A DNA stretch of 64,000 bases from an uncultured Verrucomicrobiota bacterium (GCA_964566575.1 CAZMKD010000147.1:13001-77000); one strand, 5' to 3'. Positions 729 through 48,344 are shown, counted from the stretch's first letter. A program made the numbers and translations. The notes: a model not told the origin generated them from the letters alone.

Positions 729-761
729 CGCAATTCAGGATGAGCGGCCGGCGGCTGCGAG

Positions 762-1037
762 TCAGTCTTCGTTGAACTTCAGGAGAAACAGCTCTTCGAG
801 CGCCTTCAACGCCGCCTCAGCGTCGCGTCCCTGGGCCGTGATCGTGAGCTTCGAACCTTGCGCTGCCGCCAACATCATCAACCCCATAATACTCTTGCCG
901 TTAATGATTTCACCATCTTTTTCGACTTCGATGTGGCTCTCGAATTTGCCGGCCACCTTGACGAACAACGCCGCGGGTCGAGCGTGAACGCCGAGCTTGT
1001 TGATGACGGTCATGTGTTTGCTGAGTTTGGCGGCCAT
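762..1037 (-). CDS. ptsH: phosphocarrier protein HPr
   Basis: 91 aa. The His15 region GVHARPA and the Ser46 region GKSIMGLM are both present. Confidence 0.9.
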   Translation of the reverse strand: MAAKLSKHMTVINKLGVHARPAALFVKVAGKFESHIEVEKDGEIINGKSIMGLMMLAAAQGSKLTITAQGRDAEAALKALEELFLLKFNED

Positions 1038-1040
1038 GGA

Positions 1041-1994: not shown

Positions 1995-1995
1995 G

Positions 1996-2544: not shown

Positions 2545-2555
2545 GATGTCCCTCC

Positions 2556-3299: not shown

Positions 3300-3377
3300 C
3301 GCGCGCAGTGTAGCAGAAACGTCAGTGGTGACAAGCGCGGGGGATTTACACATCGATGAGAACCGAGTATCCTTCCC

Positions 3378-15581: not shown

Positions 15582-16486
15582 GCCCGGCATTGCTCCTGAC
15601 AATCCTGCTGGCCGGCTGTGGTCGAAACCCGGCGCCGGAGATTCAGTGGCGCATGTTCAGCGGCGAGCGCGCCTATTCACAGGCCCAGAAGATCGTCGAC
15701 TTCGGCCCGCGACCCAGCGGCAGCCCGGCGCTGGCGCGGTTGACGGTCTCGCTGACCACGCAATTGCAGGAGTACGGATTGGCAGCCGACGAGCAGACGT
15801 TCATCGCGCCCACGCCGCGCGGCCCAGTGCAGTTTCGCAATCTCGTCGCCCGGACCCGCGGCGCACGCGGGGGCCCCGGCCAGGTTATCCTCATCGGCGC
15901 GCACTACGACACGAAGTGGATGACCAATACAACGTTCGTCGGCGCCAACGATGGCGCGTCGGGGGCGGCGGTGTTGCTGGAGATGGCGCGCGTGGCGTCG
16001 ACGCAGCCGAATTTGTGGTTCGTGTTCTTCGATGGCGAAGAGGCGACGCGCGAGTATGCCGAGGAGGACGGTCTGCACGGCAGCCGGTTCTTCGTCGAGG
16101 AACTAAAAGCCTCCGGCAGAATCAATTGGGTGAAGGCCATGGTCCTGCTCGACATGGTGGGTGACGCGCGCCTCAACATCAGCATGCCGGTCAACAGCGA
16201 CCCGAAGCTGGTCGAGCAAGTGTTCGAGGCGGCGCGCGATGCGGGCCACCGGGACTATTTTAGTTATGGCAAGAGCGAGATAGTGGACGATCACCTCCCC
16301 TTCCTGCGTGCCGGCATCCCGGCCGTGAACTTGATCGATTTTGAGTACGGAAGCGCACCGGGATTGAACGACTACTGGCACACCGGCCGGGATACGATGG
16401 ATAAAATCGTCCCGCGCAGCCTTGAGATTACTGGCCAGACGGCCTTACGACTGATTTCCCGCCTGAAAACCGTCGCCCCGCATTGA
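15566..16486 (+). CDS. M28 family peptidase lipoprotein
   Basis: Lipobox LLAGC, then ILIGAHYDTK...GANDGASGAAVLLEMAR and FVFFDGEE (M28 metal ligands). It overlaps the M48 gene end by about 16 nt. Confidence 0.8.
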   Translation: MATKLSPALLLTILLAGCGRNPAPEIQWRMFSGERAYSQAQKIVDFGPRPSGSPALARLTVSLTTQLQEYGLAADEQTFIAPTPRGPVQFRNLVARTRGARGGPGQVILIGAHYDTKWMTNTTFVGANDGASGAAVLLEMARVASTQPNLWFVFFDGEEATREYAEEDGLHGSRFFVEELKASGRINWVKAMVLLDMVGDARLNISMPVNSDPKLVEQVFEAARDAGHRDYFSYGKSEIVDDHLPFLRAGIPAVNLIDFEYGSAPGLNDYWHTGRDTMDKIVPRSLEITGQTALRLISRLKTVAPH

Positions 16487-16553
16487 ACCGGCCTGCCGTC
16501 TGCTCTACTCTGTGAATGGGCACCCGACGGGGGCGACCCACGGACGGAACATC

Positions 16554-34025: not shown

Positions 34026-34134
34026 TGCGAATCTCCCCTCCGGATTTCTATCCACTTAGTTAAGAGCATTTTCGCGCTGAAGAGTCAGCACAGCAAGAGA
34101 AATTGGAGGCGGGCTCTCTCAAGACTGAGGCATT

Positions 34135-34150
34135 GAGGCACGGCTATTGC
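34135..34150 (+). promoter_or_regulatory. sigma-54-type promoter candidate upstream of pilC
   Basis: AGGCACGGCTATTGCT matches the TGGCACG-N4-TTGCW consensus with one mismatch. It lies about 55 nt upstream of the pilC ATG. Confidence 0.5.
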
Positions 34151-34205
34151 TAAAAATGAGAATCAACCGGATGCGAGTTTAAGAGAGGAAGCCCTTTTTT
34201 CCATT

Positions 34206-35414
34206 ATGTTGGCCTTTCATTACCAGGCGCGAGACAACGCAGGACAAGTAATCAGCGGACAAATCGAAGCGGCAGATCAGCAGGGCGCAGCGACGATCCT
34301 GTCCAACCGCAACCTCATGATTGTCTCTCTCCGTCCGAGCGGTTCGCGGAGAGCTTCCACCAAACGCATGCAGGGCAAAGTCAAAGCCCAGGATCTTGTC
34401 GTGTTCTCCCGGCAACTGGCGACGATGATGGATGCCGGACTCCCGTTGTTGCAGTCGCTCACGGCCTTGGAGGAACAGACCGACAGTAAGGTGTTCAAGG
34501 GCATCATTCGATCTATCATGCAAAAGGTCGAAGCCGGCGACGCCCTTTCCTTAGCCCTCGCTGCGTATCCAAAGGTGTTCAACAAACTATACGTGAGCAT
34601 GGTCGAGGCGGGAGAGACCGGCGGTTTGCTGGCCGAGATTCTCGATCGCGTCGCCACCTACCTCGAGGCATCGTCGCGGTTGAAGAAGAAGGTCAAGTCC
34701 GCCATGTCCTATCCGGTGATTGTGTGCGCGATCGCGATGTGCATCTCGCTGTTCCTGCTCATGAAGGTCATCCCGATCTTTGGCGACATTTATAAAGACT
34801 TCGGCGCCAAGCTGCCGACGCCCACCCAGATATTGATCAATTTCAGCGATTTTCTGCGGGCGCATTTCTTAATGTTCATCGGCGCTCTGGGAGGAATGAT
34901 CTTCGCCTTCGTCAAACTCAAGCGCACGAGCCGCGGGACGCGGATTTGGGATCGGGTCAAACTTAAATTCCCGATCTTCGGAAAGCTTGCTCACAAGATT
35001 TGCATCACGCGATTTGCGCGCACGTTCGCCGCGCTCCTCCGTAGCGGTGTTCCAATTCTGGAGACGCTGCGGATCGTCGGTCAGTCGTCCGGCAACACCC
35101 AGGTTGAAATCGCGGTGGAGAAGACCGCGGCCAGCATCGAACGGGGCGACGGCCTGGCCTTGGCGCTCGGCCAACACGCCATCTTTCCGCCCATGCTGGT
35201 TCGCATGGTGGCGGCCGGCGAGCAGACCGGCAAAGTCGACGTCATGCTCGAGAAGATCTCAGATTTTTTTGATGAAGAGATTGAGGCGACATTGTCAGCT
35301 CTGACTTCGCTGATCGAGCCCCTGCTGATTGTGTTCTTGGGCGTTGTGGTCGGCACAATCGTCGTCTGCATGTTCCTGCCGATCTTCAAACTCAACCAGA
35401 TCGTGCAGTTCTAG
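34206..35414 (+). CDS. pilC: type IV pilus / type II secretion platform protein (GspF/PilC family)
   Basis: 402 aa with two GspF repeats (...KVEAGDALSLAL... and ...ASIERGDGLALAL...). Confidence 0.85.
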   Translation: MLAFHYQARDNAGQVISGQIEAADQQGAATILSNRNLMIVSLRPSGSRRASTKRMQGKVKAQDLVVFSRQLATMMDAGLPLLQSLTALEEQTDSKVFKGIIRSIMQKVEAGDALSLALAAYPKVFNKLYVSMVEAGETGGLLAEILDRVATYLEASSRLKKKVKSAMSYPVIVCAIAMCISLFLLMKVIPIFGDIYKDFGAKLPTPTQILINFSDFLRAHFLMFIGALGGMIFAFVKLKRTSRGTRIWDRVKLKFPIFGKLAHKICITRFARTFAALLRSGVPILETLRIVGQSSGNTQVEIAVEKTAASIERGDGLALALGQHAIFPPMLVRMVAAGEQTGKVDVMLEKISDFFDEEIEATLSALTSLIEPLLIVFLGVVVGTIVVCMFLPIFKLNQIVQF

Positions 35415-35464
35415 CCGGGAAGGCGACACGGGGGTGTCGCCGCGAGACAGGAGGAGATGCAAAT

Positions 35465-36907
35465 ATGTATAAAATTCTAGTCGCGGAAGATGATCCGAAC
35501 ATGGTTTCGGTGCTGTCGGAAGTGCTGCGGGATGGCCAGCGGCAGGTGATCTCCGCCAACACCACGGAGCGCGCTCTGGATCTGATCAAACAAGACCCGC
35601 CGGACCTCGTCCTCGCCGATATTGAGATGCCGGAAGGCAAGCCGCGCGGGCTGGAACTCCTTCGCCAAGTCAAAGACTTCAAGAGCGACATCGCGGTCGT
35701 GATGATTACAGGCAACGGAACGAAAGAGCGGGTGGTCGAGGCGCTGCGTCTCGGGGCGCAGGACTTTATTGAGAAGCCGTTTCGCGTCGATGAACTGATC
35801 CGACGTGTCGACAACGCGTTGCTCCAGAAACAGGGGGTACACGCGATCCGGGAGAACGCGGTTTTGAAGAACCAACTCCGCGAGAAATTCCGGTTTGAAA
35901 ACATTGTCGGCAGCCATCTGCGGATGGAGACCGTCTATCGGATGATCGAACGTGTGGCGGATACCGATTCGACGGTGCTCGTGCTCGGCGAGAGCGGCAC
36001 CGGTAAGGAACTCGTCGCGCGTGCGCTGCATTTCAACAGCCGCCGCGCCAACCACCCCTTTGTGGCGGTGAACTGCGCGGCCCTACCGGAGCACCTTCTC
36101 GAGTCGGAATTGTTTGGTCACCGGAAGGGCGCGTTTACCGGCGCCGCGTTCGACAAAGTCGGTCTGTTTCAACATGCGGACGAAGGCACGATCTTTCTCG
36201 ACGAAATCGGTTCGATGGCGCTTGGGTTGCAGACCAAGCTGTTGCGCTTTCTGCAAGACAAAGAACTTCGCCGCGTCGGCGATACTGGCATGATCCACGT
36301 CGATGTGCGAGTCGTCGCCGCCACCAATGAAGTGTTGCAGCAGAAGCTCAAGGAAAAATCGTTCCGCGAGGACTTGTATTACCGGATCAGCGTCATCCCC
36401 ATTGAACTGCCGCCCCTGCGGGACCGCGTCGAGGACATCCCGTTACTCGTCCAGCATTTTGTCCAGAAGTCCGCCGAACGCCAGGGTGTGCCGGCCACCC
36501 GTGTGCCCGATGACGTCTTGGAAGTTCTGATGAGCTACTCCTGGCCGGGCAATGTCCGTGAATTACAGAATGCCCTGGAGCGCGCCGGTGCCTTGTGCGA
36601 TGGCGGGGTGATCGCGCTGAAAGATCTTCCCGAGCGCATCCTCGAAAAGGTGGGATGTATTGCACAGTCGGGTCTGAACCCGGCCGTGGTCCAGAAGGCG
36701 GCTGGAGCAATTCAAACGGCGCGTGGCGACTCACCGATTCCACTGAAGGATTTTCTGCACCAACAGGAAGTGGGCTACATCGAACAAACCATCCAGGGCT
36801 TCGCCGGAGACAAAGACAAGGCGGCGGCGTTACTGGGCATCAGCATGGCGACTTTGTACCGCAAGCTCGCGCCGACGGAAGACGAAGAAGAGGCAGAGCA
36901 AGGCTAG
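35465..36907 (+). CDS. pilR: sigma-54-dependent response regulator (NtrC/PilR family)
   Basis: Receiver domain (DD...D), an AAA+ sigma-54 activation domain (GESGTGKE, GAFTGA, the ESELFGH box) and a C-terminal HTH. It is adjacent to pilC and the pilins. Confidence 0.8.
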   Translation: MYKILVAEDDPNMVSVLSEVLRDGQRQVISANTTERALDLIKQDPPDLVLADIEMPEGKPRGLELLRQVKDFKSDIAVVMITGNGTKERVVEALRLGAQDFIEKPFRVDELIRRVDNALLQKQGVHAIRENAVLKNQLREKFRFENIVGSHLRMETVYRMIERVADTDSTVLVLGESGTGKELVARALHFNSRRANHPFVAVNCAALPEHLLESELFGHRKGAFTGAAFDKVGLFQHADEGTIFLDEIGSMALGLQTKLLRFLQDKELRRVGDTGMIHVDVRVVAATNEVLQQKLKEKSFREDLYYRISVIPIELPPLRDRVEDIPLLVQHFVQKSAERQGVPATRVPDDVLEVLMSYSWPGNVRELQNALERAGALCDGGVIALKDLPERILEKVGCIAQSGLNPAVVQKAAGAIQTARGDSPIPLKDFLHQQEVGYIEQTIQGFAGDKDKAAALLGISMATLYRKLAPTEDEEEAEQG

Positions 36908-36948
36908 CGCGGCTGGCTGCTGCTGCCGACTGAGCAAGCCGGTCCAAA

Positions 36949-38499
36949 CTAGCCGCCCGGACCTGCCAGTCGCGACCAGTGGTTCTTGGCCGCCATCGCA
37001 TTCCTCTCGTCACCCAGGGCGGCGAAGCCCTCGTACAGTCCGCGCCAAACATCGGCATCCTCCACGCCGTGGTTGACGGCGACGAGCAGCACCTCCACAG
37101 CCTCGCGCGGGCGGTCGGCATTGAGGAGCGCGAATGCCAGATTCTTGCGCCCCGGGAGACCTTGCGGCGCAATTTCGACCGCGCGCCGGCCATGCGCGAT
37201 GGCGTCGTCGTAGCGCTTGAGCCGATTGTACCAAAAAGTGAGATTCACGTGCGCTGGCAAGCAGTCTGGGTTCTCGCGCAGGACGTGCAGGAAGAGCGTC
37301 TCGGTGTCGGCCCAGACACCGGTTTGCCGCACGCTCAGCGCCGTCAGTCCCGCCAGTGCCAAGCCGGCGATGACAAACACGAGGACGCGGAGACGGATTT
37401 GCGCTTGTGCCACGGTGACCACGCCCGCGCTCACGATGAATGCGAGGCCGATCAACGGAAGATATGAAAAGCGATCGGCCACGACGTGAATGCCGACCGG
37501 CACGAGTCCAATCGTGGGCGACAACGTGATGAGATAGAGCAGCCACGCCGGCAACAATGCCGGGGCGCGGTGTCGCAACGCAAATACGACAGCGTTAACG
37601 ATAGCGAATGCGGCAAGCCAACTGACGACGTGCAGGGACGTCCAACCCATCTCGTCGAAGGCGGGGTAGATGGCGGAAAGATGAAACGGCCAGAAACACT
37701 TGCCGACGTAAAAAAACGAACAGAACCCCACCAAACCTAGCCGCGACCAAACCGGTATGATCTGGGCATTCGCAACTGTGTCACCTTTGCCGGCCGCTTG
37801 TGCGAAGAAAGTGGCCAGGGTGATGATCACGCTGACGGCGAAGAACGGAATCTTTTCTGCCAGCGCAATGCGGCGACGCCAGAAGGTGTCGAGCAACAAC
37901 AGGGTGAATGGAAATGTAACGGCCGTCGATTTCGAAAGTGCGGACGCCACGAAGAGGCCGAACGTGCACCAGTAGGCGGTGCGTTTGCGCGTGGTTACCC
38001 ACGAGAGATACGCGAGCAATCCCAGTAAATAGAATAATGCAAAGAGCAAGTCTTTGCGTTCGGTGGCCCACGCGATGGATTCAACGTGTAACGGATGGAC
38101 GCCAAAGAGCGCCGCAGTCAACACGGCCACCGTCATGCCGCGGGTGGAACGATCGCGAAGCAATTTGGAAACCAGTGCGAACACAAGCAGGGTGTTGGCG
38201 ACGTGCAGCAGGAGATTTGTGAGATGGTAGCCGAGTGGGTTACGTCCCCAGATTTGGTAGTCCACGGCGAATGACAGCCAAGTAAGCGGGGCGTATAGCT
38301 TCGCAGCCGGTACGGTGAACATCGTCCACACGTGAGTGGGTGAGAGCGAGCGAATGGCCGGATTCTGTGTGATGTGTGTGTTGTCATCCCATTCGACGAA
38401 CTCGCCAGAAAGTCCGCGCATGTGTGCGGCGATCGTCAGTAGTGAGATGAACAACACGATGCGGCTTGTCAATCGGATCATGGTAATGCGAATGGCCAA
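36949..38499 (-). CDS. TMTC-like membrane glycosyltransferase (GT-C fold, DUF1736-type) with C-terminal TPR repeats
   Basis: A multi-TM N-terminus with FVEWDDNTHITQNPAI (the DUF1736-like motif), and TPR units at the C-terminus. Confidence 0.7.
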   Translation of the reverse strand: MAIRITMIRLTSRIVLFISLLTIAAHMRGLSGEFVEWDDNTHITQNPAIRSLSPTHVWTMFTVPAAKLYAPLTWLSFAVDYQIWGRNPLGYHLTNLLLHVANTLLVFALVSKLLRDRSTRGMTVAVLTAALFGVHPLHVESIAWATERKDLLFALFYLLGLLAYLSWVTTRKRTAYWCTFGLFVASALSKSTAVTFPFTLLLLDTFWRRRIALAEKIPFFAVSVIITLATFFAQAAGKGDTVANAQIIPVWSRLGLVGFCSFFYVGKCFWPFHLSAIYPAFDEMGWTSLHVVSWLAAFAIVNAVVFALRHRAPALLPAWLLYLITLSPTIGLVPVGIHVVADRFSYLPLIGLAFIVSAGVVTVAQAQIRLRVLVFVIAGLALAGLTALSVRQTGVWADTETLFLHVLRENPDCLPAHVNLTFWYNRLKRYDDAIAHGRRAVEIAPQGLPGRKNLAFALLNADRPREAVEVLLVAVNHGVEDADVWRGLYEGFAALGDERNAMAAKNHWSRLAGPGG

Positions 38500-38652
38500 G
38501 ATTCTAACATTCTGAAGGCAGTTGGCCAGTCTCTGTGTTGCTCATATTTGTGCGTGTTGAGCCGCCTTTTTTGTTGATGAATCCGCCAACTTGGAACGGC
38601 GGATTCTCATTTTATGCGACTTGGTATCGATGATCGAGGAGCATTCAGCTAC

Positions 38653-38668
38653 TGGCATCAATGGTGCT
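38653..38668 (+). promoter_or_regulatory. sigma-54-type promoter candidate upstream of the first pilin gene
   Basis: TGGCATCAATGGTGCT, with GG-N10-GC spacing. It lies about 50 nt upstream of the pilin start. Confidence 0.5.
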
Positions 38669-38715
38669 CTATTTGTCGACTTGAACAAACACACACGAAA
38701 GGCAGGTGGAACAGA

Positions 38716-39096
38716 ATGAATAGCAAGATTCGCAATAGTAAAGCGGCGTTCACCTTGGTTGAAATCATGATTGTGGTTGCCATTATCGGGTTGCTCGCTG
38801 CCTTGGCGATTCCGGGCTTCGTCAAAGCCCGTAAACAGTCCCAAGGTCGCCGCATTATCAACGACGCGCGTCAGATGGACGCGGCCGTTGATCAATGGGC
38901 GCTCGAGAACGGCAAGAAGGACGGCGACACGGTGGATACCACCGCCGCGGCGTCTTACTTGAAGACCGCCTGGAATGCCAACGACCTGTTGAACAATGCG
39001 TACACGGTCAACACGGTCGGCGCCACTCAGGTCGTGATCTCCGCGACCACGAAGTCTGCTCTGCAGGGCGTGGGTATTGACTGGGGTCCGTTCTAA
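38716..39096 (+). CDS. pilA: type IV pilin (prepilin-type N-terminal methylation domain)
   Basis: MNSKIRNSKAAFTLVEIMIVVAIIGLLAALAIPGF, the class III signal and hydrophobic helix. Confidence 0.8.
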   Translation: MNSKIRNSKAAFTLVEIMIVVAIIGLLAALAIPGFVKARKQSQGRRIINDARQMDAAVDQWALENGKKDGDTVDTTAAASYLKTAWNANDLLNNAYTVNTVGATQVVISATTKSALQGVGIDWGPF

Positions 39097-39141
39097 ACCC
39101 TGAACAGTAACGCGAGCGCTTTACGCTCACGACACGCAGAG

Positions 39142-39168
39142 GCAGGAGGTAACCCCTCCTGCCTTTGG
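39142..39168 (+). terminator. intergenic hairpin (GCAGGAGG-TAACC-CCTCCTGC, then CTTTGG) between the two pilin genes
   Basis: A perfect 8-bp GC-rich stem with a weak U-tract. It could act as an attenuator or partial terminator. Confidence 0.35.
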
Positions 39169-39187
39169 CGCATACAGAAATGACACA

Positions 39188-39601
39188 ATGATGAGGGGAG
39201 GCGAGTACGACTTGAAAATCGAACGGTTGCGGAGACATCGCCGCGGAGGGTTCACCCTATTGGAAATCATGGTTATCGTAGCCTTAATCGGGTTACTCGC
39301 CGTTTTGGCGATGCCGGCCTTCATCAAAAGCCGCAAATTGGCGCAAGGCAAACGTGTCGTCAACGACGCGCGGATTATTGACCAAGCCGTGGATGCATGG
39401 GCGATGGAGACTTACAAGACCGATGGCGCGCCTGTGAACCTCGTTGAAGCAGCGTCATACACAAAGTTGGGTTTCATCCCGGACCCCGACTTATTGGGGA
39501 ACCCATACGGCATCGGTCCTGTCGGCACCAATCAGGTGCGAATCGCTGATACTACCAAAGGTGCATTGTCAGGCGTCTCCATCGACTGGGGCGCATACTG
39601 A
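39188..39601 (+). CDS. type IV pilin paralogue
   Basis: ...RRGGFTLLEIMVIVALIGLLAVLAMPAF.... Its C-terminal region matches the first pilin (D.ARIIDQAVD.WA...). Confidence 0.8.
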   Translation: MMRGGEYDLKIERLRRHRRGGFTLLEIMVIVALIGLLAVLAMPAFIKSRKLAQGKRVVNDARIIDQAVDAWAMETYKTDGAPVNLVEAASYTKLGFIPDPDLLGNPYGIGPVGTNQVRIADTTKGALSGVSIDWGAY

Positions 39602-39664
39602 GCCGCCCGCCAAGCAATTCCCGTCCAAATCAGCGATAGGCAGCCCGATGGGATGGGGGTTGTT

Positions 39665-39680
39665 GGCATATCGCGTGCTC
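39665..39680 (+). promoter_or_regulatory. sigma-54-type promoter candidate upstream of pilM
   Basis: TGGCATATCGCGTGCT has the same GGCAT-N5-GTGCT form as the promoter upstream of pilA. It lies about 20 nt before the pilM ATG. Confidence 0.45.
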
Positions 39681-39699
39681 AAGGTTAGTGGGAGGAAAC

Positions 39700-40758
39700 A
39701 TGATTTTCAGGAAAAACAAGCAAGGCAAGCGAGGCTCGATCATCGGGCTGGACTTGGGCTCGCACCAGATTAAAGCGGTGGTCCTCGAGCGCGAAGACGC
39801 CGCTCTCAAACTTGCTCGCTACGTCGTGTTCCCCTCATCTGCGGGAGCGAGCAAGGCCGGGTCGGCGGAAAAACTCGCCACCGAATTGCAGGAAGTGATG
39901 ACTCAACTTGGAGGTGGTGACGGCGGCGTCCATGTGTCGGTCAGCTGCCCGTCTGCGACCGTCTGCGAAGCAGAATTTCCGCGTATGCCGCTCGATGAAG
40001 TCCGCAGCGCACTCCGGATGCCGGTCAATGCCAACCGGTACCTGCGACGGGACCTGACGGGATATTATGTGGATGCTATCGAATTGAGCGAGGTGGAAAG
40101 TGACAGCAAGAACAAGAAGTCGCAAACCATGCGGCTGCTTGTCGCTGCGGCGGACAAAGAAGAGGTGCGCTGGTACTGCGGAGCACTCGAGGCCGCCAAG
40201 ATTCCTCCCCAGGCGATCGGGTTGTCCGCGCTCACGGTTGTCAACGCCTTCCACATCGGCAATGCGGAACTCTGTGAGAAGGAAGTTGTGCTCTTGCTCG
40301 ACATTGGCGCGCACTCCACCAGCATCAGTGTCCTGCGCAAAGGACAACCGTCGATGACACGGATCATGCACTTTGGTGGATATCAAATCAGTGAGTTTAT
40401 CGGCTCGATTCTGACTCTGGAACCGAACGCGGCCGAGGAAGAGAAGATCAAGATGACCGATGTGGTCCAACCGCTGGTCCGGCAGGCGCTATCGCCACTT
40501 GCGCGGGAAGTCCGGTCCTCCATCGACTTCTTCGAGCGGCAACAGGAATGCCACGTCAGCCGCGCGTACGCGTGTGGCGGCAGCGCCTGTTCCGCCAGTG
40601 TGTTGGATTTCCTTAGCGAGGAAGTCGGGTTTCACATCGAAAGCTGGAACCCGATCCAGGCTCTTTCGACAGTCCATTTCAACGGTGAAGCCCCCAAACT
40701 GGCGAGTCTTGCCCCCACGCTGGCAGCGGCGATCGGAACCGCCGTGCCGCACCTCTGA
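39700..40758 (+). CDS. pilM: type IV pilus assembly protein PilM (actin-like ATPase fold)
   Basis: IIGLDLGSHQIKAVVLE at the N-terminus, about 350 aa. The ORF opens at 39688 (GTG). Confidence 0.85.
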   Translation: MIFRKNKQGKRGSIIGLDLGSHQIKAVVLEREDAALKLARYVVFPSSAGASKAGSAEKLATELQEVMTQLGGGDGGVHVSVSCPSATVCEAEFPRMPLDEVRSALRMPVNANRYLRRDLTGYYVDAIELSEVESDSKNKKSQTMRLLVAAADKEEVRWYCGALEAAKIPPQAIGLSALTVVNAFHIGNAELCEKEVVLLLDIGAHSTSISVLRKGQPSMTRIMHFGGYQISEFIGSILTLEPNAAEEEKIKMTDVVQPLVRQALSPLAREVRSSIDFFERQQECHVSRAYACGGSACSASVLDFLSEEVGFHIESWNPIQALSTVHFNGEAPKLASLAPTLAAAIGTAVPHL

Positions 40759-40776
40759 GCTCGTAAGCACGTCATC

Positions 40777-41463
40777 ATGACTGCAATTACTCTCAACTTA
40801 CTGGCGGAGGAGCAATTCGCCCAACGCGCCGAGTCGCGCAATCCATTCAAAGTGGCTCTCGCAATCGGGATCGGCGTGTTCACGCTCACAGTGTTGGCCG
40901 GTATGATCGTCGCCCACGTGGCTGGGAAGCGGGGACGGGAAGCCGACGCACTGCAAAGTAAGTTGGATACTCTGGAGGCGTCAGAATCAGTTGCAACCGG
41001 CGGAGACACGAAGACGCTCAAATCGATAGCCGATGACATCGTGGCGATCAATCGAGACCGGCAACTGTACGCGAAGCAACTTGCCCTGATCAAGGACCTT
41101 GTGCCGAACACGATCGAGTTGACGCGTATCAACTTTAGCCTCAGCGTCAACACGCAGGATACTGCGCCGGCAGAGTCAGCGGCACCGACCCGGGGTGAGA
41201 AAGACAAAGGCACCCGCCTTGCTCGGCCGAAAGTTACCGAGCGTTTGACGTTGCAACTCGAAGGCCGGGCAATTTGCAGTCGCCCCGAAATTGAAGTCGA
41301 TCAGTACATTCAGACATTGCAAAGCGACGCTACGTTTGGGAGCTACGTCAAGGATATCAAACTGCGCTCCATCGCCCGCGGGGCCATTGGTGGAAGTTCC
41401 GCGACGCCGGGTGCGGCCAGCGTGAACTTTGTCATCGAGTGCCAATATCAGGAGCGCAAATGA
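40777..41463 (+). CDS. pilN: PilN-like pilus assembly protein
   Basis: ITLNLL at the N-terminus, one TM helix, and a coiled-coil periplasmic domain. Confidence 0.7.
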   Translation: MTAITLNLLAEEQFAQRAESRNPFKVALAIGIGVFTLTVLAGMIVAHVAGKRGREADALQSKLDTLEASESVATGGDTKTLKSIADDIVAINRDRQLYAKQLALIKDLVPNTIELTRINFSLSVNTQDTAPAESAAPTRGEKDKGTRLARPKVTERLTLQLEGRAICSRPEIEVDQYIQTLQSDATFGSYVKDIKLRSIARGAIGGSSATPGAASVNFVIECQYQERK

Positions 41464-42074
41464 ACTTTCTGAAATCCATGCCGAAGAAAAAGCTTCAGAA
41501 GGTCATTTTGGTGGCGATCCTCAGCTTGATTGGAATCGGTGCGGTTGGCAATTTTTACGTCGGGATAGGGTTGACCAAGCTTTCAACGGAGCGCGCCCGT
41601 CTGGTGAAGCTACGCACTCAACTGGACTCGGCGCAGTCCAACGCCAAGCAGGAGGCACAGAACGACCAACTTCGGGAACAGATCCGGGCATTCGTCGATG
41701 GCCATCGTCAGAAGATGATCTCCGGTGACCCGTTTAGCTGGATTGTGCGCGAAATCAGCCTGTTGGCGGAAGGGCATGTTGTACGCGTGGCCGCGCTGCG
41801 ACCCGGGACGAAGTATGCCAACATCGTCAAACCCAAGTACGAAATGTTCACGACCCGCATCGAGTTGGAAGGTGCTTACGACCAGATCGGGAAGTTCATC
41901 AAGGAACTGGAGAATACCTTCGTTACGGGTCAGATCCGGTCGCTCGAAGTAACATCATCCGACCCGACACGCGGACAATGTCGCGCGACCCTTGACTTAG
42001 CGTTACTGACGCGCCCCGACGAAGCTGCAACACCAGCGCATAAGTTATCGGAAGGAGCAAACAAGAGCCTATGA
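41460..42074 (+). CDS. pilO: PilO-like pilus assembly protein
   Basis: ATGA overlap with pilN. A single TM helix followed by a coiled coil. Confidence 0.65.
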   Translation: MNFLKSMPKKKLQKVILVAILSLIGIGAVGNFYVGIGLTKLSTERARLVKLRTQLDSAQSNAKQEAQNDQLREQIRAFVDGHRQKMISGDPFSWIVREISLLAEGHVVRVAALRPGTKYANIVKPKYEMFTTRIELEGAYDQIGKFIKELENTFVTGQIRSLEVTSSDPTRGQCRATLDLALLTRPDEAATPAHKLSEGANKSL

Positions 42075-42640
42075 GACCGGTTTCACAGACGATTGACCTG
42101 ACGAACTCACACATCGGTCACCCGGGCGCTACATCGACGTTCGCTTTGGACGTGACGATGCGTCCATTGGAGCGCACCTTGAGCCGGCATTCACGCACAG
42201 ACGCCCTGCGTCTGGTCGGATTGATGGCGTTCGGTCAATCACTGCTGTTTCTGGCGATTTGGCTGCTGATTTGTGCCAGCACGGGTGCGGCGGGTGTGAA
42301 CAAAGTGGATTTCAATCCGGATCTACAACTCTCCGACTATCGGCCCGCGAAAGTGCGCAATCCCTTCGGCGGGATGGCAGCAGCCGACGCCAATGTGGCA
42401 TCGATGCCCATTGGGGCACTGGACTTTCAGTTACAAGGCATCTTGTATCAATCGAAGAATCCATCAGCAATTGTGAACAACCAACTGTTGACCCTCAACA
42501 AAACTGTAACTCTCGAGACCGGGATTGGCACAGTTGAAGTGCGAGCCGTCGCAATCACCCGCAACAACGTCGTCCTGGAGTCCAAGGGGCAGAAGGTCAT
42601 GCTACACCTTAACTCCTCCAATTCCCAACATCAGCCATAG
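42071..42640 (+). CDS. PilP-like protein (hypothetical)
   Basis: Assigned by its position between pilO and the secretin, with a TM or signal segment LMAFGQSLLFLAIWLLICAS. Family membership is not established. Confidence 0.45.
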   Translation: MRPVSQTIDLTNSHIGHPGATSTFALDVTMRPLERTLSRHSRTDALRLVGLMAFGQSLLFLAIWLLICASTGAAGVNKVDFNPDLQLSDYRPAKVRNPFGGMAAADANVASMPIGALDFQLQGILYQSKNPSAIVNNQLLTLNKTVTLETGIGTVEVRAVAITRNNVVLESKGQKVMLHLNSSNSQHQP

Positions 42641-42685
42641 CGCCAAACAGTAGATGGCGTGATTGCTGCTAAACATAAACCCACT

Positions 42686-44338
42686 ATGAAAACTGCGTTG
42701 TTATTCGGAGGAACGACCATGAGCAATCGGCTTCTCACAGCAGGTGCTTTCGCTGTTTGTCTGACTCTCTTACCGGACGCGACCCGGGCAGACGAAAATA
42801 CCGAAAAGCCTACAGTCAGTACTCCCGCTGTCACCGTTGCTCCGGTGAGCACCCCCGCTGTCAACGTCGAACCCCCCGCCAAATCCGAGACCCCGGCTGG
42901 TGTGTCCGCGTCCGACAAGGGCGACGCAACGGCGAAAGCCGACAGCAAGCCGAGCGATGCGGCCGAACCGGTAATGATTGATTACAACGAAGCGGATATC
43001 CAGAGCGCCTTGCGCACGTTGGCCACAAGAGCTGGAATCAATCTGATCATGGGCGATGAGGTGACCGGCAAGGTCACCGTCCATCTCGAGGGTGTGAGTT
43101 ATGAGGACGCGATACAGCTCATTGTCGAGTCCAAAGGGTACGCTTACGTCAAAGACAAAAACGTGGCGCGGATCAAATCCAAAGAATCATTGGAGAGTGA
43201 GCCGCTCGAAGTGCGGGTGCAAACATTGAACTATGCAAAGGCTGATGACATCCGCAAGACGCTTGAGCCCGTGCTGACGAAGCGCGGCAAGATTCAAGTG
43301 GATGCGCGCAGCAATACACTAATCTTCTCCGACACGCCCTCGAATCTTGCCAAAGTCATCCCGCTGTTGGAGACACTCGACCTGCAGACTCCGCAGGTCA
43401 TGATCGAAGCAAAATTCGTTGAAACAACAAAGAATCCGAAGAAAGATCTTGGCATCAACTGGTCGGGCACCTTGCTGAACCACGAAGTAAGCGTGCGCCG
43501 GCCGACACCAGACAAACCTGTTGACTCTGTGGGTAACCCCTCGCCATTGGAATTCGGAAATAACTTGGCCAATGGACAGTGGACCTATCCCACGGCGATA
43601 CTGGATGTGGGCTCCTTCAATGTGGTGTTGTCCTATCTGAACTCGGACTCCGACACGGAATTGCTGGCTAACCCCCGGGTTGTGACCGCGGACAATAGTA
43701 AGGCAAAAATTGCCATCGCCACCCAGTATCCGATCCCGACGTTTACGTACAGCGAAACAAAGGGTGCGTTCACAATTTCCGGATTCGAATTCAAAGACAT
43801 CGGGATCGTTCTGAACGTGACGCCGCGGATTAACAAGAATGAGTTTGTCACGCTCGACGTCGCGCCCGAGGCGGGTAGTCAATCCGGTGTGGCCAACTTC
43901 CAGGGAGTCAGCATCCCGATCGTCGACAACCGCTCGGCAAGCACGACGGTGCTCATCAAGAGTGGGAATACGCTGGCAATTGGCGGGCTTATGCGCCAGG
44001 ACACCACTGATCAGTATACGAAGGTGCCGGTTCTGGGAGATCTGCCTGGCCTTGGCGCTCTCTTTCGCAGCAAGAGCCTCACCAAGACCAAGCGCGATCT
44101 GTTGATTTTCGTCACACCTACCATCGTCAATCCAGAATCTCAAACAGGCTATGAACAATACATCGGTGGCCTGCCAGCGGAAGAACTCTTCACCCGCGAC
44201 AAGTGGTTGCCCAAAGACAACGCCAAACCGAATTCTGCCAGCCTGAAAGAGCTCCTTCCGCAACGTCCGAATTCTGCCAGTCGGAAAGAGGTCGTTCCGT
44301 CACGTAAATCACCGAGCCAGAACTTCGTCCCCAAATAA
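42686..44338 (+). CDS. pilQ: type IV pilus secretin PilQ (GspD family)
   Basis: N0/secretin domains (...ARSNTLIFSDTPSNL..., ...VPVLGDLPGLGALFRSKSLTKTKRDLLIFVTPTIV...). The start is uncertain (42659, 42686 or 42719). Confidence 0.85.
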   Translation: MKTALLFGGTTMSNRLLTAGAFAVCLTLLPDATRADENTEKPTVSTPAVTVAPVSTPAVNVEPPAKSETPAGVSASDKGDATAKADSKPSDAAEPVMIDYNEADIQSALRTLATRAGINLIMGDEVTGKVTVHLEGVSYEDAIQLIVESKGYAYVKDKNVARIKSKESLESEPLEVRVQTLNYAKADDIRKTLEPVLTKRGKIQVDARSNTLIFSDTPSNLAKVIPLLETLDLQTPQVMIEAKFVETTKNPKKDLGINWSGTLLNHEVSVRRPTPDKPVDSVGNPSPLEFGNNLANGQWTYPTAILDVGSFNVVLSYLNSDSDTELLANPRVVTADNSKAKIAIATQYPIPTFTYSETKGAFTISGFEFKDIGIVLNVTPRINKNEFVTLDVAPEAGSQSGVANFQGVSIPIVDNRSASTTVLIKSGNTLAIGGLMRQDTTDQYTKVPVLGDLPGLGALFRSKSLTKTKRDLLIFVTPTIVNPESQTGYEQYIGGLPAEELFTRDKWLPKDNAKPNSASLKELLPQRPNSASRKEVVPSRKSPSQNFVPK

Positions 44339-44390
44339 TTCAAGGACACGACAAAGTTAGTGAGAGAGCTGAGGGTGGGGACGTTAGGTT

Positions 44391-44417
44391 GGGGGATGCC
44401 GGCAGCCGGCATCCCCC
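44391..44417 (+). terminator. strong hairpin downstream of pilQ (GGGGGATGCCGG-CAGC-CGGCATCCCCC)
   Basis: A perfect 12-bp stem about 50 nt after the pilQ stop. It has no clear U-tract. Confidence 0.4.
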
Positions 44418-44511
44418 AATGCCGTTAGCGGTTCGCAGTTTCGAGTTGGCTTTGTCGCAGGGATGCGAACGAACCTCCCCCCAGGACACTTACGAGCGTG
44501 ACTTTCAGTGA

Positions 44512-44527
44512 CGGCACATCTGGTGCT
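44512..44527 (+). promoter_or_regulatory. sigma-54-type promoter candidate upstream of the minor-pilin operon
   Basis: CGGCACATCTGGTGCT, about 40 nt upstream of the minor-pilin ATG. Confidence 0.45.
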
Positions 44528-44567: not shown

Positions 44568-44996
44568 ATGCGGGCTCAAGGGAAACGCGGTCAAACCGGC
44601 TTCACGATGGTGGAAGCCACTGTCGCCAGCGTGATTCTGGTCCTGGCGTTGGTCTCCGTGCTGGCGTTAGGGGCGAGAGCGTTCCGGTACTTGAACGACA
44701 TGCGACGCTGGGCGCGCTCCTCCCAAGTGCTGCAGCAGAAGATGGAAGACATCCGCTTGGTCACGGTGTGGACCAACGTCTGGGCATTGAACAACGCCAC
44801 GTTTACGGACTCTAGCTTGAGCGGCATGGTTTACAAAGGCAGCATCGACATCAGTTCCTACAACCCCCCGTATCCAACCGACTTTGTTGCCCGAGTCACC
44901 CTGACGGTCACTTGGACCAATAGCACCTACAAAGTTGTCACGAATCGTCTGTGTTCGTTGGTCTGTAAGAATGGCCTCAACAAATACATTTTTTAA
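44568..44996 (+). CDS. prepilin-type minor pilin/pseudopilin
   Basis: QTGFTMVEATVASVILVLALVSV. Confidence 0.7.
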   Translation: MRAQGKRGQTGFTMVEATVASVILVLALVSVLALGARAFRYLNDMRRWARSSQVLQQKMEDIRLVTVWTNVWALNNATFTDSSLSGMVYKGSIDISSYNPPYPTDFVARVTLTVTWTNSTYKVVTNRLCSLVCKNGLNKYIF

Positions 44997-45537
44997 GCGC
45001 GTGACCCCGAGTCGATCATGCGGCGGCTTTACGCTCGTCGAAGCGTCGATGGGCGCAGCCATCGGCGCCATCATCATGGGCGGTGTGCTTAGCACGTACA
45101 TCATGACCGCCCGGCAGTTCGCCGCCATCTCGAATTACTGGGAGATCCACATGGACGGTCGCACGGCTATCGACCGATTCGCCGTCGACATGCGCGCCGT
45201 CTACGCCATCAAGAGTTTTGCCGCGAATGGTCCCTTGGTCGTGAAGACGCCGTTCTATTCGAGCGGCGGTTCGATTACAAACACCGCCACGATCACCTAT
45301 ACCTACACGTCCGGTATGCTCAAGCGAACCGACGCCCTCACCGGGTCGACTTCCGTACTGGCGACTAACGTCTACAACCTGAAGTTCTCATTGTTCGACC
45401 GCGTCGGCAGCAACACCACGGTCATCGCCGCCGCCAAGGGAGTCTCGATCGAACTCTTTCTCCGCAAATCTACTGCTGGAAAAAACCAAACCGAGGATTA
45501 CCTGTCGGCGCGCATGAATATGCGCAACAAGCCCTGA
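44971..45537 (+). CDS. prepilin-type minor pilin/pseudopilin
   Basis: CGGFTLVEASMGAAIGAIIMGGVL. The start is assigned at MASTN. Confidence 0.65.
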   Translation: MASTNTFFKRVTPSRSCGGFTLVEASMGAAIGAIIMGGVLSTYIMTARQFAAISNYWEIHMDGRTAIDRFAVDMRAVYAIKSFAANGPLVVKTPFYSSGGSITNTATITYTYTSGMLKRTDALTGSTSVLATNVYNLKFSLFDRVGSNTTVIAAAKGVSIELFLRKSTAGKNQTEDYLSARMNMRNKP

Positions 45538-45545
45538 GGTGGACC

Positions 45546-46937
45546 ATGAATCAACTCACTCTTCGACGTACCGATGACCGAGGCTCAGTCCTGATTTCAG
45601 CGGCAGTGGCCGCGGCGGTGATCGCCATCCTCGTCGGCGGGATGCTCACCTTCATCAGCAACGAGTACCGGCAGAACCTTCGCAGCCACCGCTGGACGCA
45701 AGCGCTCTATTTGGCGGAAGCCGGCGTGGATATCGGGTTCGCCGAGGTCAATAACTACTACCTCTTCGGCTCCAATGCCTTTTCCAGCTCGCGCGGCTGG
45801 GTCAGTCAAGGGGGCGGCAACTACATCAAGATTGTCGCGGCGTTTACGAATGCCGCAGGCGAAGTCGTCGGCAGTCTCAGCAATCGCGTCCAGGGCGCCA
45901 TCGGGAACAATCCGCCCATCGTCAAAGCATTTGCCAGTTGCACCACCACGCCCAACGGTCCGAAAATCTATCGCGGCATCAAGTCCATCCTCGTCGATAG
46001 CGCCGCCTTCCCCGCCGGCCTGGTTTCCAAGGGTGGCATTGACATGAAGGGCAACAACATCACCACCGACAGCTACGATTCCTATGACGTCAGCAAATCC
46101 ACCAACGGCCGATACGATTCAACCAAGAAACAGGCCAACGGCGACATCGCCACCAACGGCGCGCTCACCAACTCCAACATCAGCGCCGGCAATGCCAACA
46201 TCTCCGGCTATGCGCTCACCGCTCCCGGCGGCACCGTCACTCTAGGTGCCTCTGGCACAATCGGCCCCACGTTCATCAGTCCGGCCACCACGGTGGCGGA
46301 GGCTCAGGCGAATGGCTGGGTGCGCGACGACTTCGCTGTGGATATCCCGGACGTCACCTTGCCCAGCGGCACCTCGTCCTGGCTCTCACTAGGCAGCATC
46401 AATAACAATACGACGCTCGCCACCGGTAACTATCAGGCGACCGACGTCACCCTCACCGGCTGGAATAGCCTCGTCATCGACGGCGACGTGAAGCTCTACG
46501 TCACCGACGCCAGCCAAGGGATCAGTATCCTCGCCAACGCCCAAATCACCATCAACTCGGGCGGCACCTTAACCATCTACAGCAACGGTTCGATGGACAT
46601 TGGCGGCAACGGGGTCGTCAACTACAACACCAGCGGCAGTAGCGACTCGGCGGCGATGCACGCCCAGTTCTACGGCATGAACACCGCCACCTCCGTCAAC
46701 ATCCATGGCAACGGTGAGTGGGTCGGCATGATCTACGCGCCCTACGCGGATCTCTCGCTGGGCGGCGGCGGCGAAATGAGCGGCTCGGTCGTCGCCAAAT
46801 CCATCAACATGAACGGGCACGTCAGCTTCCACTACGACGAAGCCCTTCGCACCCAGGGGCCCGGGGCCACCTTTGACATCCACTCTTGGGAAACCTACCG
46901 TTCCACCGACGGCGTCAATTGGACCAAAGATTTCTGA
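45546..46937 (+). CDS. PilX-N-like pilus-associated protein with beta-helix-like C-terminal region
   Basis: A PilX-like hydrophobic N-terminus (RGSVLISAAVAAAVIAILVGGMLTF) followed by a Gly/Asn/Thr-rich repetitive region. Confidence 0.6.
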   Translation: MNQLTLRRTDDRGSVLISAAVAAAVIAILVGGMLTFISNEYRQNLRSHRWTQALYLAEAGVDIGFAEVNNYYLFGSNAFSSSRGWVSQGGGNYIKIVAAFTNAAGEVVGSLSNRVQGAIGNNPPIVKAFASCTTTPNGPKIYRGIKSILVDSAAFPAGLVSKGGIDMKGNNITTDSYDSYDVSKSTNGRYDSTKKQANGDIATNGALTNSNISAGNANISGYALTAPGGTVTLGASGTIGPTFISPATTVAEAQANGWVRDDFAVDIPDVTLPSGTSSWLSLGSINNNTTLATGNYQATDVTLTGWNSLVIDGDVKLYVTDASQGISILANAQITINSGGTLTIYSNGSMDIGGNGVVNYNTSGSSDSAAMHAQFYGMNTATSVNIHGNGEWVGMIYAPYADLSLGGGGEMSGSVVAKSINMNGHVSFHYDEALRTQGPGATFDIHSWETYRSTDGVNWTKDF

Positions 46938-46943
46938 CCACGC

Positions 46944-48344
46944 CTACCGGACATCCAGTCGGCGCAAGATCCCAAACTTCTCGATCCGCTTGCGCAATGT
47001 CGCCCGCGTGATGCCCAACAGCTTCGCCGCCTGCACCTGGTTGCCCCCCGTCTGCTCCAGCGCCCGCACGATCAGCTCCCGCTCCATCAACGGGATCAAC
47101 TCCAGCGCCGAATCCTTGCGCGCCAACTCAAACAACGCCCGCGCCGCCGCCTCCAACCCGGCCGTCACGTCCTCGGCCGGCGCCACGGTGGGCGCGCCCA
47201 CCTCAGCCGGCAAATCCTCGGCCATCAACGTCTCGCGCCGTGCCATTACGACGGCCCGCTCGATCACGTTCTCCAACTCCCGCACGTTGCCGGGCCACAG
47301 GTGTTTCTGGAGCGAGGCCAGCGCCGCCGGCGCGATGCCTTTGACCTTGCCGGTACGCCGCAGAAAGTACTCCACCAACACCGGGATGTCGTCCACCCGG
47401 TCCCGCAACGGCGGCAAGTGGATGCGCACCACGTTGAGCCGGTAGTACAAGTCCTCGCGGAACTTCTTCTCCGCCACGAGTCGTTCCGGCTCCTTGTTGG
47501 TCGCGGCGATCACGCGCACATCGGCGCGCAGCGTCTCGTTGCCGCCGACGCGCTGGAACTCGCCGTTCTGGAGCACGCGCAGGATTTTCGTTTGCGTCGT
47601 CAACGGCATGTCGCCGATCTCGTCGAGAAACAGCGTGCCTTGGTCGCACTGCTCGAACTTGCCGATGCGCCGCTCCGCCGCGCCGGTAAACGAGCCTTTC
47701 TCGTGGCCGAACAACTCGCTCTCCAGCAGATTCTCCGGGATGGCCGCGCAGTTGATCGCCATAAACGGCTGACCCGCGCGCGCGCTGTGGTGGTAGAGAG
47801 CCCGCGCGACCAATTCCTTTCCAGTCCCGCTTTCGCCGGTCACCAGCACCGTCGCGTCGGAGTGCGACACCTGACCGATCATCTTGAACACCTGCTGCAT
47901 CGCCTCGCTCTTGCCGACGATGCCCTCGGCGTACTCTTCCTTCGCGAGCAACGGCTGGTAGCTGACGACGGCGCGCATGTCGCGCGCGACTTTCAGCGCG
48001 GCGGCGATCAGGGTCTTGAGTTTCGGCACGTCCAGCGGTTTCAGGATGTAATCGTACGCGCCGAGCTTCATCGCCTCGATCGCTGTCTGCGTCGTGCCGT
48101 AGGCGGTCATGATGATGACCAACAGCTTCGGGTTCAACTCCCGCAGTTTGCGCAACGTGTCCAGCCCGCTGGTACCGGCCATGCGAATGTCCATGACGAC
48201 GAGGTCCGGTTGCTCCGCCGCGACTTGCCGGATGGCGTCGTGTCCGTCCCCGGCTTCGACGATGTGCACCGTGTCGGTTTCGAGGTTGCGTCGAAACGCC
48301 CGGCGAATGTCCGCCTCGTCATCGACGACCAAAATCTTTTCCAT
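46944..48344 (-). CDS. sigma-54-dependent response regulator (NtrC family), orphan
   Basis: Receiver domain, AAA+ domain (GESGTGKE, GSFTGA) and HTH. There is no adjacent histidine kinase. Confidence 0.9.
   Translation of the reverse strand: MEKILVVDDEADIRRAFRRNLETDTVHIVEAGDGHDAIRQVAAEQPDLVVMDIRMAGTSGLDTLRKLRELNPKLLVIIMTAYGTTQTAIEAMKLGAYDYILKPLDVPKLKTLIAAALKVARDMRAVVSYQPLLAKEEYAEGIVGKSEAMQQVFKMIGQVSHSDATVLVTGESGTGKELVARALYHHSARAGQPFMAINCAAIPENLLESELFGHEKGSFTGAAERRIGKFEQCDQGTLFLDEIGDMPLTTQTKILRVLQNGEFQRVGGNETLRADVRVIAATNKEPERLVAEKKFREDLYYRLNVVRIHLPPLRDRVDDIPVLVEYFLRRTGKVKGIAPAALASLQKHLWPGNVRELENVIERAVVMARRETLMAEDLPAEVGAPTVAPAEDVTAGLEAAARALFELARKDSALELIPLMERELIVRALEQTGGNQVQAAKLLGITRATLRKRIEKFGILRRLDVR

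Follow-up and report, generated by a model that had tools for sequence, protein, structure and literature searches.

Putative sigma-54 promoters at the heads of type IV pilus operons in an uncultured Verrucomicrobiota bacterium

Expression of the type IV pilin gene pilA is controlled by PilS-PilR and RpoN in Pseudomonas aeruginosa, and also in Myxococcus xanthus, Dichelobacter and Kingella. The minor pilins of P. aeruginosa depend on FimS-AlgR, and its pilMNOPQ genes are, to our knowledge, not known to be driven by sigma-54. Here we describe a type IV pilus gene cluster from an uncultured Verrucomicrobiota bacterium, found in a window of 64,000 nucleotides (GCA_964566575.1 CAZMKD010000147.1:13001-77000; positions are counted from its first letter, and "the window" means this whole stretch), in which sites resembling sigma-54 promoters stand before several operons. 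As in P. aeruginosa, a putative sigma-54 promoter directly precedes the probable major pilin gene, and an activator of REC-AAA+-HTH architecture is encoded inside the cluster. Unlike in P. aeruginosa, the activators of the window have no adjoining PilS-type kinase and are not established as PilR orthologues, and sigma-54-type sites also precede the platform, alignment-complex, secretin and minor-pilin units.

The control of pilA by PilS-PilR and RpoN has been summarised previously (PMC7170775), in a study of what is the closest precedent for the arrangement described here, the RpoN2-PilRX system of Xanthomonas oryzae pv. oryzae. In that species, GG-N10-GC elements are found before most pilus units, direct binding by RpoN2 was seen at the promoters of pilR, pilA and pilC, and mutants in rpoN2 or pilR express less pilM and fimT; for pilM and the minor pilins, promoter binding was not confirmed (PMC7170775). 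The link between sigma-54 and pili, flagella and other surface structures is well established (PMC3162934). Our literature search found no paper tying sigma-54 to the pili of Verrucomicrobia.

Sigma-54-type sites before the pilus operons

A sequence-only reading of the window had named four sigma-54-type motifs, before pilC, pilA, pilM and the minor pilins, and had taken them as signs of an RpoN-dependent pilus regulon. The gene names on which it relied (pilC, pilin, pilM and minor pilins) are backed by Pfam; here and below, gene identities come from a Pfam scan of 47 of the 51 open reading frames called in the window. The four 16-mers are each unique in the window and lie on the + strand, where that reading had placed them (Table 1). 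The GG-N10-GC spacing is common to all four and the form GGCA(T/C)-N5-GTGCT to three, again as described, and all four can be written YGGCAY-N5-NTGCT, with no departure from the sigma-54 consensus at the core positions (GGCA...TGCT). All lie in non-coding DNA, and their first bases are 70, 63, 36 and 56 nt from the ATG codons at 34206, 38716, 39700 and 44568, respectively. Transcription from the pilC, pilin and minor-pilin sites is predicted to start at ~34162, ~38679 and ~44538, which would give leaders of ~44, ~37 and ~30 nt.

The pattern GGCAY-N5-KTGCT has five matches on the two strands of the 64 kb, all of them on the + strand within the cluster, against 0.6 expected, and none of 100 shuffled sequences reached five. 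Because this pattern was written after the sites had been seen, we added a scan with a generic sigma-54 matrix, with which the Geobacter consensus TTGGCACGGTTTTTGCT agrees (PMC2725144), and scored each gene by the best matrix value within 200 nt upstream on its own strand (n = 51 genes). The four pilus operon heads score 11.9-15.8, higher than the upstream regions of all 47 other genes in the window, the best of which reaches 9.4. Seven of 127,970 positions in the window score at least ~11.9, the value of the weakest of the four sites; the high scorers that are not at promoters are all in coding sequence (41208+ in pilN, 40538- in pilM and 17338+ in a patatin gene), and a further coding-region match, at 36216+ in the activator gene bEBP1, scored 12.2 in a separate matrix scan. 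All four sites belong to the ~4% of positions that precede a same-strand start codon by no more than 100 nt; by our own rough figure, the chance that four of eight matches would lie no more than 100 nt upstream of pilus operon heads is ~1e-8. The matrix alone is not decisive; the matrix combined with position is.

Two of the coding-region candidates, the fifth match to the pattern (41208/41209, in pilN) and the antisense match in pilM (40538-), are not kept in related loci and were therefore treated as chance. The match at 36216 was rejected as a promoter, being AAA+ coding sequence, and it recurs in relatives only because that coding sequence is conserved. It might be argued that the four motifs are themselves chance matches in a GC-rich genome, since the motif is short and degenerate and two coding-region matches of similar score occur within the cluster. 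We consider this extremely improbable in the light of the shuffled sequences, the placement of all four sites at pilus operon heads, and the retention of their positions in relatives.

The relatives of the window's PilM come from uncultured Verrucomicrobiia of peat and soil. We collected loci L001-L016, of which 11 were informative once duplicates had been removed (L002, nearly the same as L003; L008, the window itself; L015, identical to L005); they represent ~8 independent lineages, and their PilM proteins are 45-75% identical to that of the window. Two pairs are not independent, L009 with L010 (92% nucleotide identity) and L001 with L014 (mosaic, up to 97%). The gene order is kept: pilC, activator 1, a membrane/TPR protein (in parentheses in our scheme of the conserved order), the pilins, pilMNOPQ and the minor pilins, followed by activator 2 on the opposite strand, an M50 protease and a CCA enzyme. 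The pilC site is present in all 10 related loci that cover the region (scores 14.6-17.4), the site before the first functional pilin unit in 11 of 11 (12.0-16.3), the pilM site, of the TGGCATATGAAGTGCT type, in nine of 11 (14.6-15.7; the 16-mer is identical in L001, L003 and L011), and the minor-pilin site in nine of the 10 related loci that have the operon (10.9-14.6, the lowest value being that of L007). Internal genes (activator 1, second and third pilins, pilN) have no site, with scores of 7.9 or less across loci.

This conservation is confined to the expected bases. An alignment of the pilin upstream region from five loci is invariant only at TTGGCAT, at TGCT and at the Shine-Dalgarno sequence with the ATG; among 43 sites, the information content is ~2 bits at GGCA and TGCT, compared with ~0.1 bit in the flanks, where the core value stems partly from site selection and the contrast with control genes is unaffected by it. 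Positional conservation amid diverged intergenic DNA is, in our view, the strongest evidence that these are functional sites.

A candidate fifth site is found in the non-coding gap between pilP and pilQ, with a predicted start at ~42681. It keeps TGGC and TGCT, and scores only 10.1 in the window because position -22 is not A. Eleven of 12 loci have a site of the form TGGC(C/T/G/A)(T/C)-N5-(T/C/G)(T/C)GCT here, predominantly TGGCCTGATTGTTGCT and scoring as high as 13.8; L007 reads TCGCT. We place the pilQ start at the ATG with a Shine-Dalgarno sequence, 42719, and not at the GTG at 42659. An in-frame ATG at 42686, 11 codons before 42719, is kept in most related loci, and the 11-residue peptide it would add is not conserved; were it the true start, the leader of a transcript from the fifth site would be only ~5 nt. 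The 16-mers could also be targets of some other DNA-binding regulator, or RNA-level elements within read-through transcripts. The spacer is partly kept within a class (ATGAA at pilM, GATTG at pilQ), beyond what sigma-54 needs, and the pilQ site is off consensus at -22. Nonetheless, we regard this as very unlikely: the bases common across classes are the sigma-54 contacts only, at an exact 10-nt spacing and without dyad symmetry, no Rfam family matched anywhere in the window, and a consensus RNA fold of the pilP-pilQ gap revealed no conserved structure (-1.3 kcal/mol, no covariation).

Promoter function and the rpoN question

The consensus match, the distance from start codons, the strand, the activator gene and the conservation in ~8 lineages together support the earlier proposal of an RpoN-dependent regulon covering the structural, assembly and minor-pilin operons. 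We put the probability that the four sites are working sigma-54 promoters driving the type IV pilus cluster at roughly 80%. The best explanation of the locus would be a type IVa-like pilus gene cluster whose transcription units each open at a sigma-54 promoter. RNA polymerase with sigma-54 would bind the GG(-24)/GC(-12) elements and form a closed complex, and opening of the DNA would await ATP hydrolysis by an NtrC-family AAA+ activator that touches sigma-54 through its GAFTGA loop. One or both of the activators encoded in the window, bEBP1 and bEBP2, could be the remodelling activators; both are response regulators, and their kinase would have to be encoded elsewhere. Sigma-54 binding, start sites, the pairing of activators with promoters and any feedback are inferred from sequence. 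The units would be pilC-bEBP1; pilin 1, perhaps together with pilin 2, pilin 1 being followed by a strong hairpin; pilMNOP; probably pilQ, from the weaker site and with a strong hairpin at its end; and the minor pilins.

Several observations weigh against this reading. The matrix is our own approximation of the published consensus TGGCACG-N4-TTGCW, position -15 is G or C, not the consensus T, at most sites, and two of the four sites score no higher than the non-conserved coding-region matches 41208+ and 40538-. In the window, neither pilA nor pilM has a clear enhancer. The predicted pilM start, ~39690, would leave a leader of only ~10 nt that opens at the Shine-Dalgarno sequence GGGAGG; L004 and L005 lack the pilM site, and L013 lacks the minor-pilin site. 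Lastly, a pattern search for the RpoN box found no rpoN in the 64-kb window. The usual place of rpoN is the classical lptB-rpoN-hpf linkage. The window has a minus-strand operon at 3-3512 comprising lptB (2556-3512), hpf (1996-2544), hprK (1041-1994), ptsH (762-1037) and ptsI (3-734), and the gap between lptB and hpf is only 11 bp, without rpoN. We assume that rpoN is present in the source genome; it has been reported in all Verrucomicrobia genomes examined (PMC3372290).

With no rpoN found in the window and the lptB-hpf junction empty, the sites might be non-functional sigma-54 relics, as at pilE of pathogenic Neisseria, and the operons might run from unrecognised housekeeping promoters. We found no match to the sigma-70 consensus on the + strand of the four intergenic regions, and the sigma-70 and terminator consensus scans gave the same counts as in shuffled sequence; Verrucomicrobial housekeeping promoters are poorly defined, however, such that the negative sigma-70 scan is weak evidence. 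Relics would be expected to decay, whereas the core bases are invariant in ~8 independent lineages with randomised flanks. Furthermore, two intact activators kept in synteny in relatives, at 65-75% identity, would be pointless without sigma-54. We therefore think it quite unlikely that the sites are relics.

Alternatively, only some of the sites, those of pilC and pilA, may work, with those of pilM, pilQ and the minor pilins weak or accessory and expression mainly by read-through. The short pilM leader and the loss of the pilM site in two loci would fit this possibility, as would the low score of the pilQ site and the minor-pilin site being the lowest of the four and missing from one locus. 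Read-through into pilin 2 and pilM is plausible because the hairpin after pilin 1 has no clear U-tract; similar post-pilin hairpins are present in L001 and L004, and the hairpin is probably a partial terminator or an mRNA stabiliser. Conversely, conservation is strongest at the pilM site, three related loci having an identical 16-mer there. The hairpin after pilQ, which is probably the terminator of the assembly operon and has analogues in L004, L007, L009 and L010, sets the minor pilins apart from pilQ; at -33.9 kcal/mol, its position suggests that the minor pilins need a promoter of their own. The hairpins after pilin 1 and pilQ thus fit separate transcription units, and we judge partial function to be an appreciable but rather unlikely alternative to working promoters at all four operon heads.

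Activators, palindromes and surrounding genes

A sigma-54 activator gene between pilC and the pilins was part of the sequence-only reading, and the Pfam architecture of bEBP1 bears this out; a second activator gene, bEBP2 (46944-48344), whose product is 41% identical to that of bEBP1, had been overlooked. In both proteins the receiver aspartate, the Walker A motif GESGTGK and the GAFTGA or GSFTGA loop are intact. Both genes are syntenic in relatives, and bEBP2 is kept at this position in L001, L004, L007, L009-L014 and L016. The description of the first activator as PilR-like holds for its architecture (REC-AAA+-HTH_8) and its place in the cluster, and goes too far as a statement of orthology. 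No HisKA or HATPase domains were found in the 47 scanned open reading frames, and no histidine kinase adjoins either activator in eight annotated related loci. The best NCBIfam matches are to AtoC, NtrC and PEP-CTERM regulator models, all below cut-off, and no PilR model matched; the closest PDB relatives are LuxO, NtrC1, FleQ and NtrX. Given the lack of an adjacent PilS-type kinase and of a family-specific match, PilR orthology is unproven.

The bEBP1 gene begins 50 nt after pilC. There is no promoter-like or terminator-like site between them, and the best sigma-54 score upstream of bEBP1 is 3.4; bEBP1 is therefore probably co-transcribed with pilC from the putative sigma-54 promoter at 34136. 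Its position behind a sigma-54 promoter would place the level of bEBP1 under feedback or under the control of bEBP2.

Candidate regulator sites of the class TCKCA-N4-TGMGA are concentrated at the minor-pilin and pilC promoters. The palindrome was first spotted by inspection and then tested against other spacer lengths. Within 10.2 kb of sequence surrounding the pilC, pilA and minor-pilin promoters there are eight exact copies, versus three in the remaining 284 kb, two of which sit where pilQ meets the minor-pilin genes in L013; with the half-sites set 1-3 or 5-8 nt apart, there are zero or one matches. An unbiased search for 6-8-mers enriched upstream of promoters gave a best P of 2.6e-5 (GATTCTCA), which is not significant after multiple testing. 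Iterative refinement of a palindrome matrix was set aside as evidence and used descriptively only, since a matrix trained on promoter regions makes the argument circular. Among possible binding sites for an activator or repressor, we favour TCKCA-N4-TGMGA.

The sequence-only reading had called for a search for enhancer-like inverted repeats upstream. Upstream of the minor-pilin promoter, there is an exact palindrome at 44455-44468 and a weaker copy at 44431-44447; at ~70-105 nt upstream of the predicted start, a typical enhancer distance, the pair is a candidate enhancer. Across loci, the palindrome lies 57-166 nt upstream of the first base of the minor-pilin 16-mer. For pilA and pilM there is no clear counterpart, and the copy at pilC abuts the promoter core, occupying roughly -45 to -32 relative to the predicted start. 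The orthologous position at pilC has TCGCAGCTTTGAGA in L012 and TCTCAGAACTGAGA in L009 and L010; these last two loci have a further copy overlapping the predicted start of pilC transcription, an arrangement that looks more like autoregulation or repression than activation. Upstream of pilA, the inverted repeat at 38579-38606 is a candidate enhancer or insulator; as RNA it would fold with -17.3 kcal/mol (z -4.9), and it is not kept as such in relatives. The surrounding segment, 38572-38615, reads as a terminator-like hairpin followed by UCAUUUUAU on the + strand, and no + strand gene ends nearby.

A more far-reaching reading is that the whole pilus machine is off by default, with five sigma-54 promoters, two orphan activators forming a cascade or feedback loop, and TCKCA-N4-TGMGA as a previously undescribed operator. 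In such a cascade, bEBP2 would stand outside and bEBP1 behind its own sigma-54 promoter, and the palindrome would have two roles, as the enhancer of the minor-pilin promoter and, where it overlaps the promoter of pilC-bEBP1, in autoregulation. We put this forward tentatively, as a possibility that is at present the less probable side of the question.

The type IVa core recognised by Pfam consists of T2SSF, PilM_2, Secretin/Secretin_N and N_methyl proteins. The matches of the pilC product to the NCBIfam PilC/GspF models are below their cut-offs. Between pilM and pilQ there are three genes whose size and order fit PilN, PilO and PilP; the only domain match in this region is a weak, sub-threshold one to PilO (E 0.013), and PilN and PilP are named by position only. 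No PilB or PilT ATPase and no PilD peptidase was found among the 47 scanned open reading frames, and a Walker-A pattern search did not turn up any either; these proteins are presumably encoded elsewhere in the genome.

Table 1. Coordinates of features in and around the pilus cluster; positions are those of the window, matrix scores are from the generic sigma-54 matrix, and pilN, pilO and pilP denote the genes in those positions.
Feature	Position	Strand	Details
Palindrome TCTCAAGACTGAGG, TCKCA-N4-TGMGA class, 1 mismatch	34117-34130		abuts pilC -24 element
Putative pilC-bEBP1 promoter, sigma-54-type, AGGCACGGCTATTGCT	34136-34151	+	matrix 15.8, window maximum
pilC, inner-membrane platform protein	34206-35414	+	Pfam T2SSF (PilC/GspF) 1e-62
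bEBP1	35465-36907	+	Pfam REC, Sigma54_activat (AAA+), AAA_lid, HTH_8; GAFTGA loop
Polytopic membrane protein, C-terminal TPR repeats	36949-38481	-	divergent from pilins
Inverted repeat GAATCCGCC-N10-GGCGGATTC	38579-38606		47-74 nt upstream of pilA -24 element
Putative pilin promoter, sigma-54-type, TGGCATCAATGGTGCT	38653-38668	+	matrix 12.6
Pilin 1, probable major pilin	38716-39096	+	Pfam N_methyl; 61-76% identical to relatives' pilins
Hairpin after pilin 1, 13-bp stem	39137-39167	+	dG -26.5 kcal/mol, z -6.4
Pilin 2	39188-39601	+	Pfam N_methyl; no own sigma-54 site, best score 2.2
Putative pilMNOP promoter, sigma-54-type, TGGCATATCGCGTGCT	39664-39679	+	matrix 14.6
pilM	39700-40758	+	Pfam PilM_2, 1.8e-27
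pilN	40777-41463	+	conserved synteny
pilO	41439-42074	+	conserved synteny
pilP	42071-42640	+	conserved synteny
Candidate fifth sigma-54-type site, TGGCGTGATTGCTGCT	42655-42670	+	pilP-pilQ non-coding gap; score 10.1
pilQ secretin (539 aa)	42719-44338	+	Pfam Secretin 2e-47, Secretin_N
Hairpin after pilQ, perfect 15-bp stem	44389-44419	+	dG -33.9 kcal/mol, z -5.2
Two adjoining palindromic sites, TTCGCAGTTTCGAGT and TCGCAGGGATGCGA	44431-44470		~70-105 nt upstream of predicted minor-pilin start
Putative minor-pilin operon promoter, sigma-54-type, CGGCACATCTGGTGCT	44512-44527	+	matrix 11.9
Minor-pilin operon, pilin-like proteins and DUF7305 protein	44568-44996, 44935-45537 (N_methyl), 45546-46937 (DUF7305/adhesive domain)	+	
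bEBP2	46944-48344	-	REC, AAA+, HTH_8; GSFTGA loop; convergent with minor-pilin operon

At the residue preceding the cleavage site, pilin 1 (38716-38790) has Ala in place of Gly, which is near-universal there (KAA|FTLVEIM), as does that of L001, and pilin 2 (39188-39270) has GG|FTLLEIM. In L009 (9177-9515) and L010 (9182-9515), what follows the pilin site is a degenerate pilin-like frame with no Pfam hit and an altered N-terminal helix; the intact pilin comes after this copy and lacks a sigma-54 site of its own. L011 has TadE/Tad-like pseudopilin genes on the opposite strand (15066-17575, -) in place of the minor-pilin operon, with a sigma-54-like motif upstream (17575-, TGGCTTATTTTTTGCT, score 13.5) that adjoins activator 2. 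The DNA of L001 and L014 is 96-97% identical over pilC-activator 1, only 82-87% identical over the pilins and pilO-pilQ, and without a blastn match over pilM-pilN, a pattern suggesting that the pilus cluster is mosaic or recombined, or that a contig of a metagenome-assembled genome is chimeric.

The protein encoded at 36949-38481(-) has ~390 residues of transmembrane helices with an N-terminal FVEWDD motif, followed by the TPR repeats. It resembles GT-C/TMTC-type glycosyltransferases and might modify pilin. Its gene has no sigma-54 motif upstream in the window, where a sigma-70-like match lies at 38528-38501(-), and its orthologues in L004 (9124-), L013 (8664-) and L011 (328+) have a sigma-54-like motif of their own. 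A second membrane protein with TPR repeats, encoded at 61684-63609 (-), contains an O-antigen ligase domain (Wzy_C) and has no detectable similarity to the one in the pilus cluster. Wzy_C enzymes include pilin O-glycosyltransferases. Two further genes of the window are unrelated to the promoter finding: 16512-18524 encodes a cyclic-nucleotide-binding patatin-like phospholipase, and 20383-22950 an 855-residue protein with a Chlamydia PMP repeat, possibly an adhesin or autotransporter.

Comparison with known sigma-54 systems

Two-tier cascades of sigma-54 activators are known from polar flagella, FlrA then FlrC in Vibrio and FleQ then FleR in Pseudomonas. The locus described here is similar in having two NtrC-family activators for one appendage regulon, one of them behind a putative sigma-54 promoter; it concerns a different organelle, and a hierarchy of bEBP2 over bEBP1 is only a hypothesis. 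Among pilus systems, Geobacter sulfurreducens likewise has an activator gene directly upstream of a pilin gene with an RpoN promoter (PMC2725144). The Geobacter consensus TTGGCACGGTTTTTGCT fits the core bases of the window's sites; pilA is the only target documented in G. sulfurreducens, and the -12 region is TTGCT in Geobacter versus mostly G/C-TGCT in the window (PMC2725144). In commensal Neisseria, Npa/Nps and RpoN drive the pilin gene pilE, again by sigma-54 with a response-regulator activator; unlike in the window, there is a single gene target, and the site in pathogenic species is a non-functional relic (PMC6528607).

The likeness is greatest to X. oryzae, in which sigma-54 control also extends over several pilus operons and the activator gene is itself behind sigma-54 (PMC7170775). 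X. oryzae differs in being a Gammaproteobacterium, in having a PilS partner, and in having its genes spread over 13 units (PMC7170775); the window differs in having two activators and a different candidate binding palindrome, and in that the evidence is comparative only. The general picture is unchanged by our findings, since sigma-54 control of surface structures is textbook knowledge (PMC3162934) and multi-operon control is known in X. oryzae (PMC7170775). Nonetheless, almost nothing is known of gene regulation in free-living soil and peat Verrucomicrobiota, and five defined promoters, two regulators and a candidate operator would, if our reading is correct, be of use in interpreting metatranscriptomes or building reporters. 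Membership of the PilS-PilR family is not shown for this locus; that it works like the known sigma-54/activator pilus systems, in a poorly studied phylum, is well supported by the comparisons made here. If so, the link between sigma-54 and pili would span the whole machine, beyond the pilin gene, in a phylum far from the Proteobacteria.

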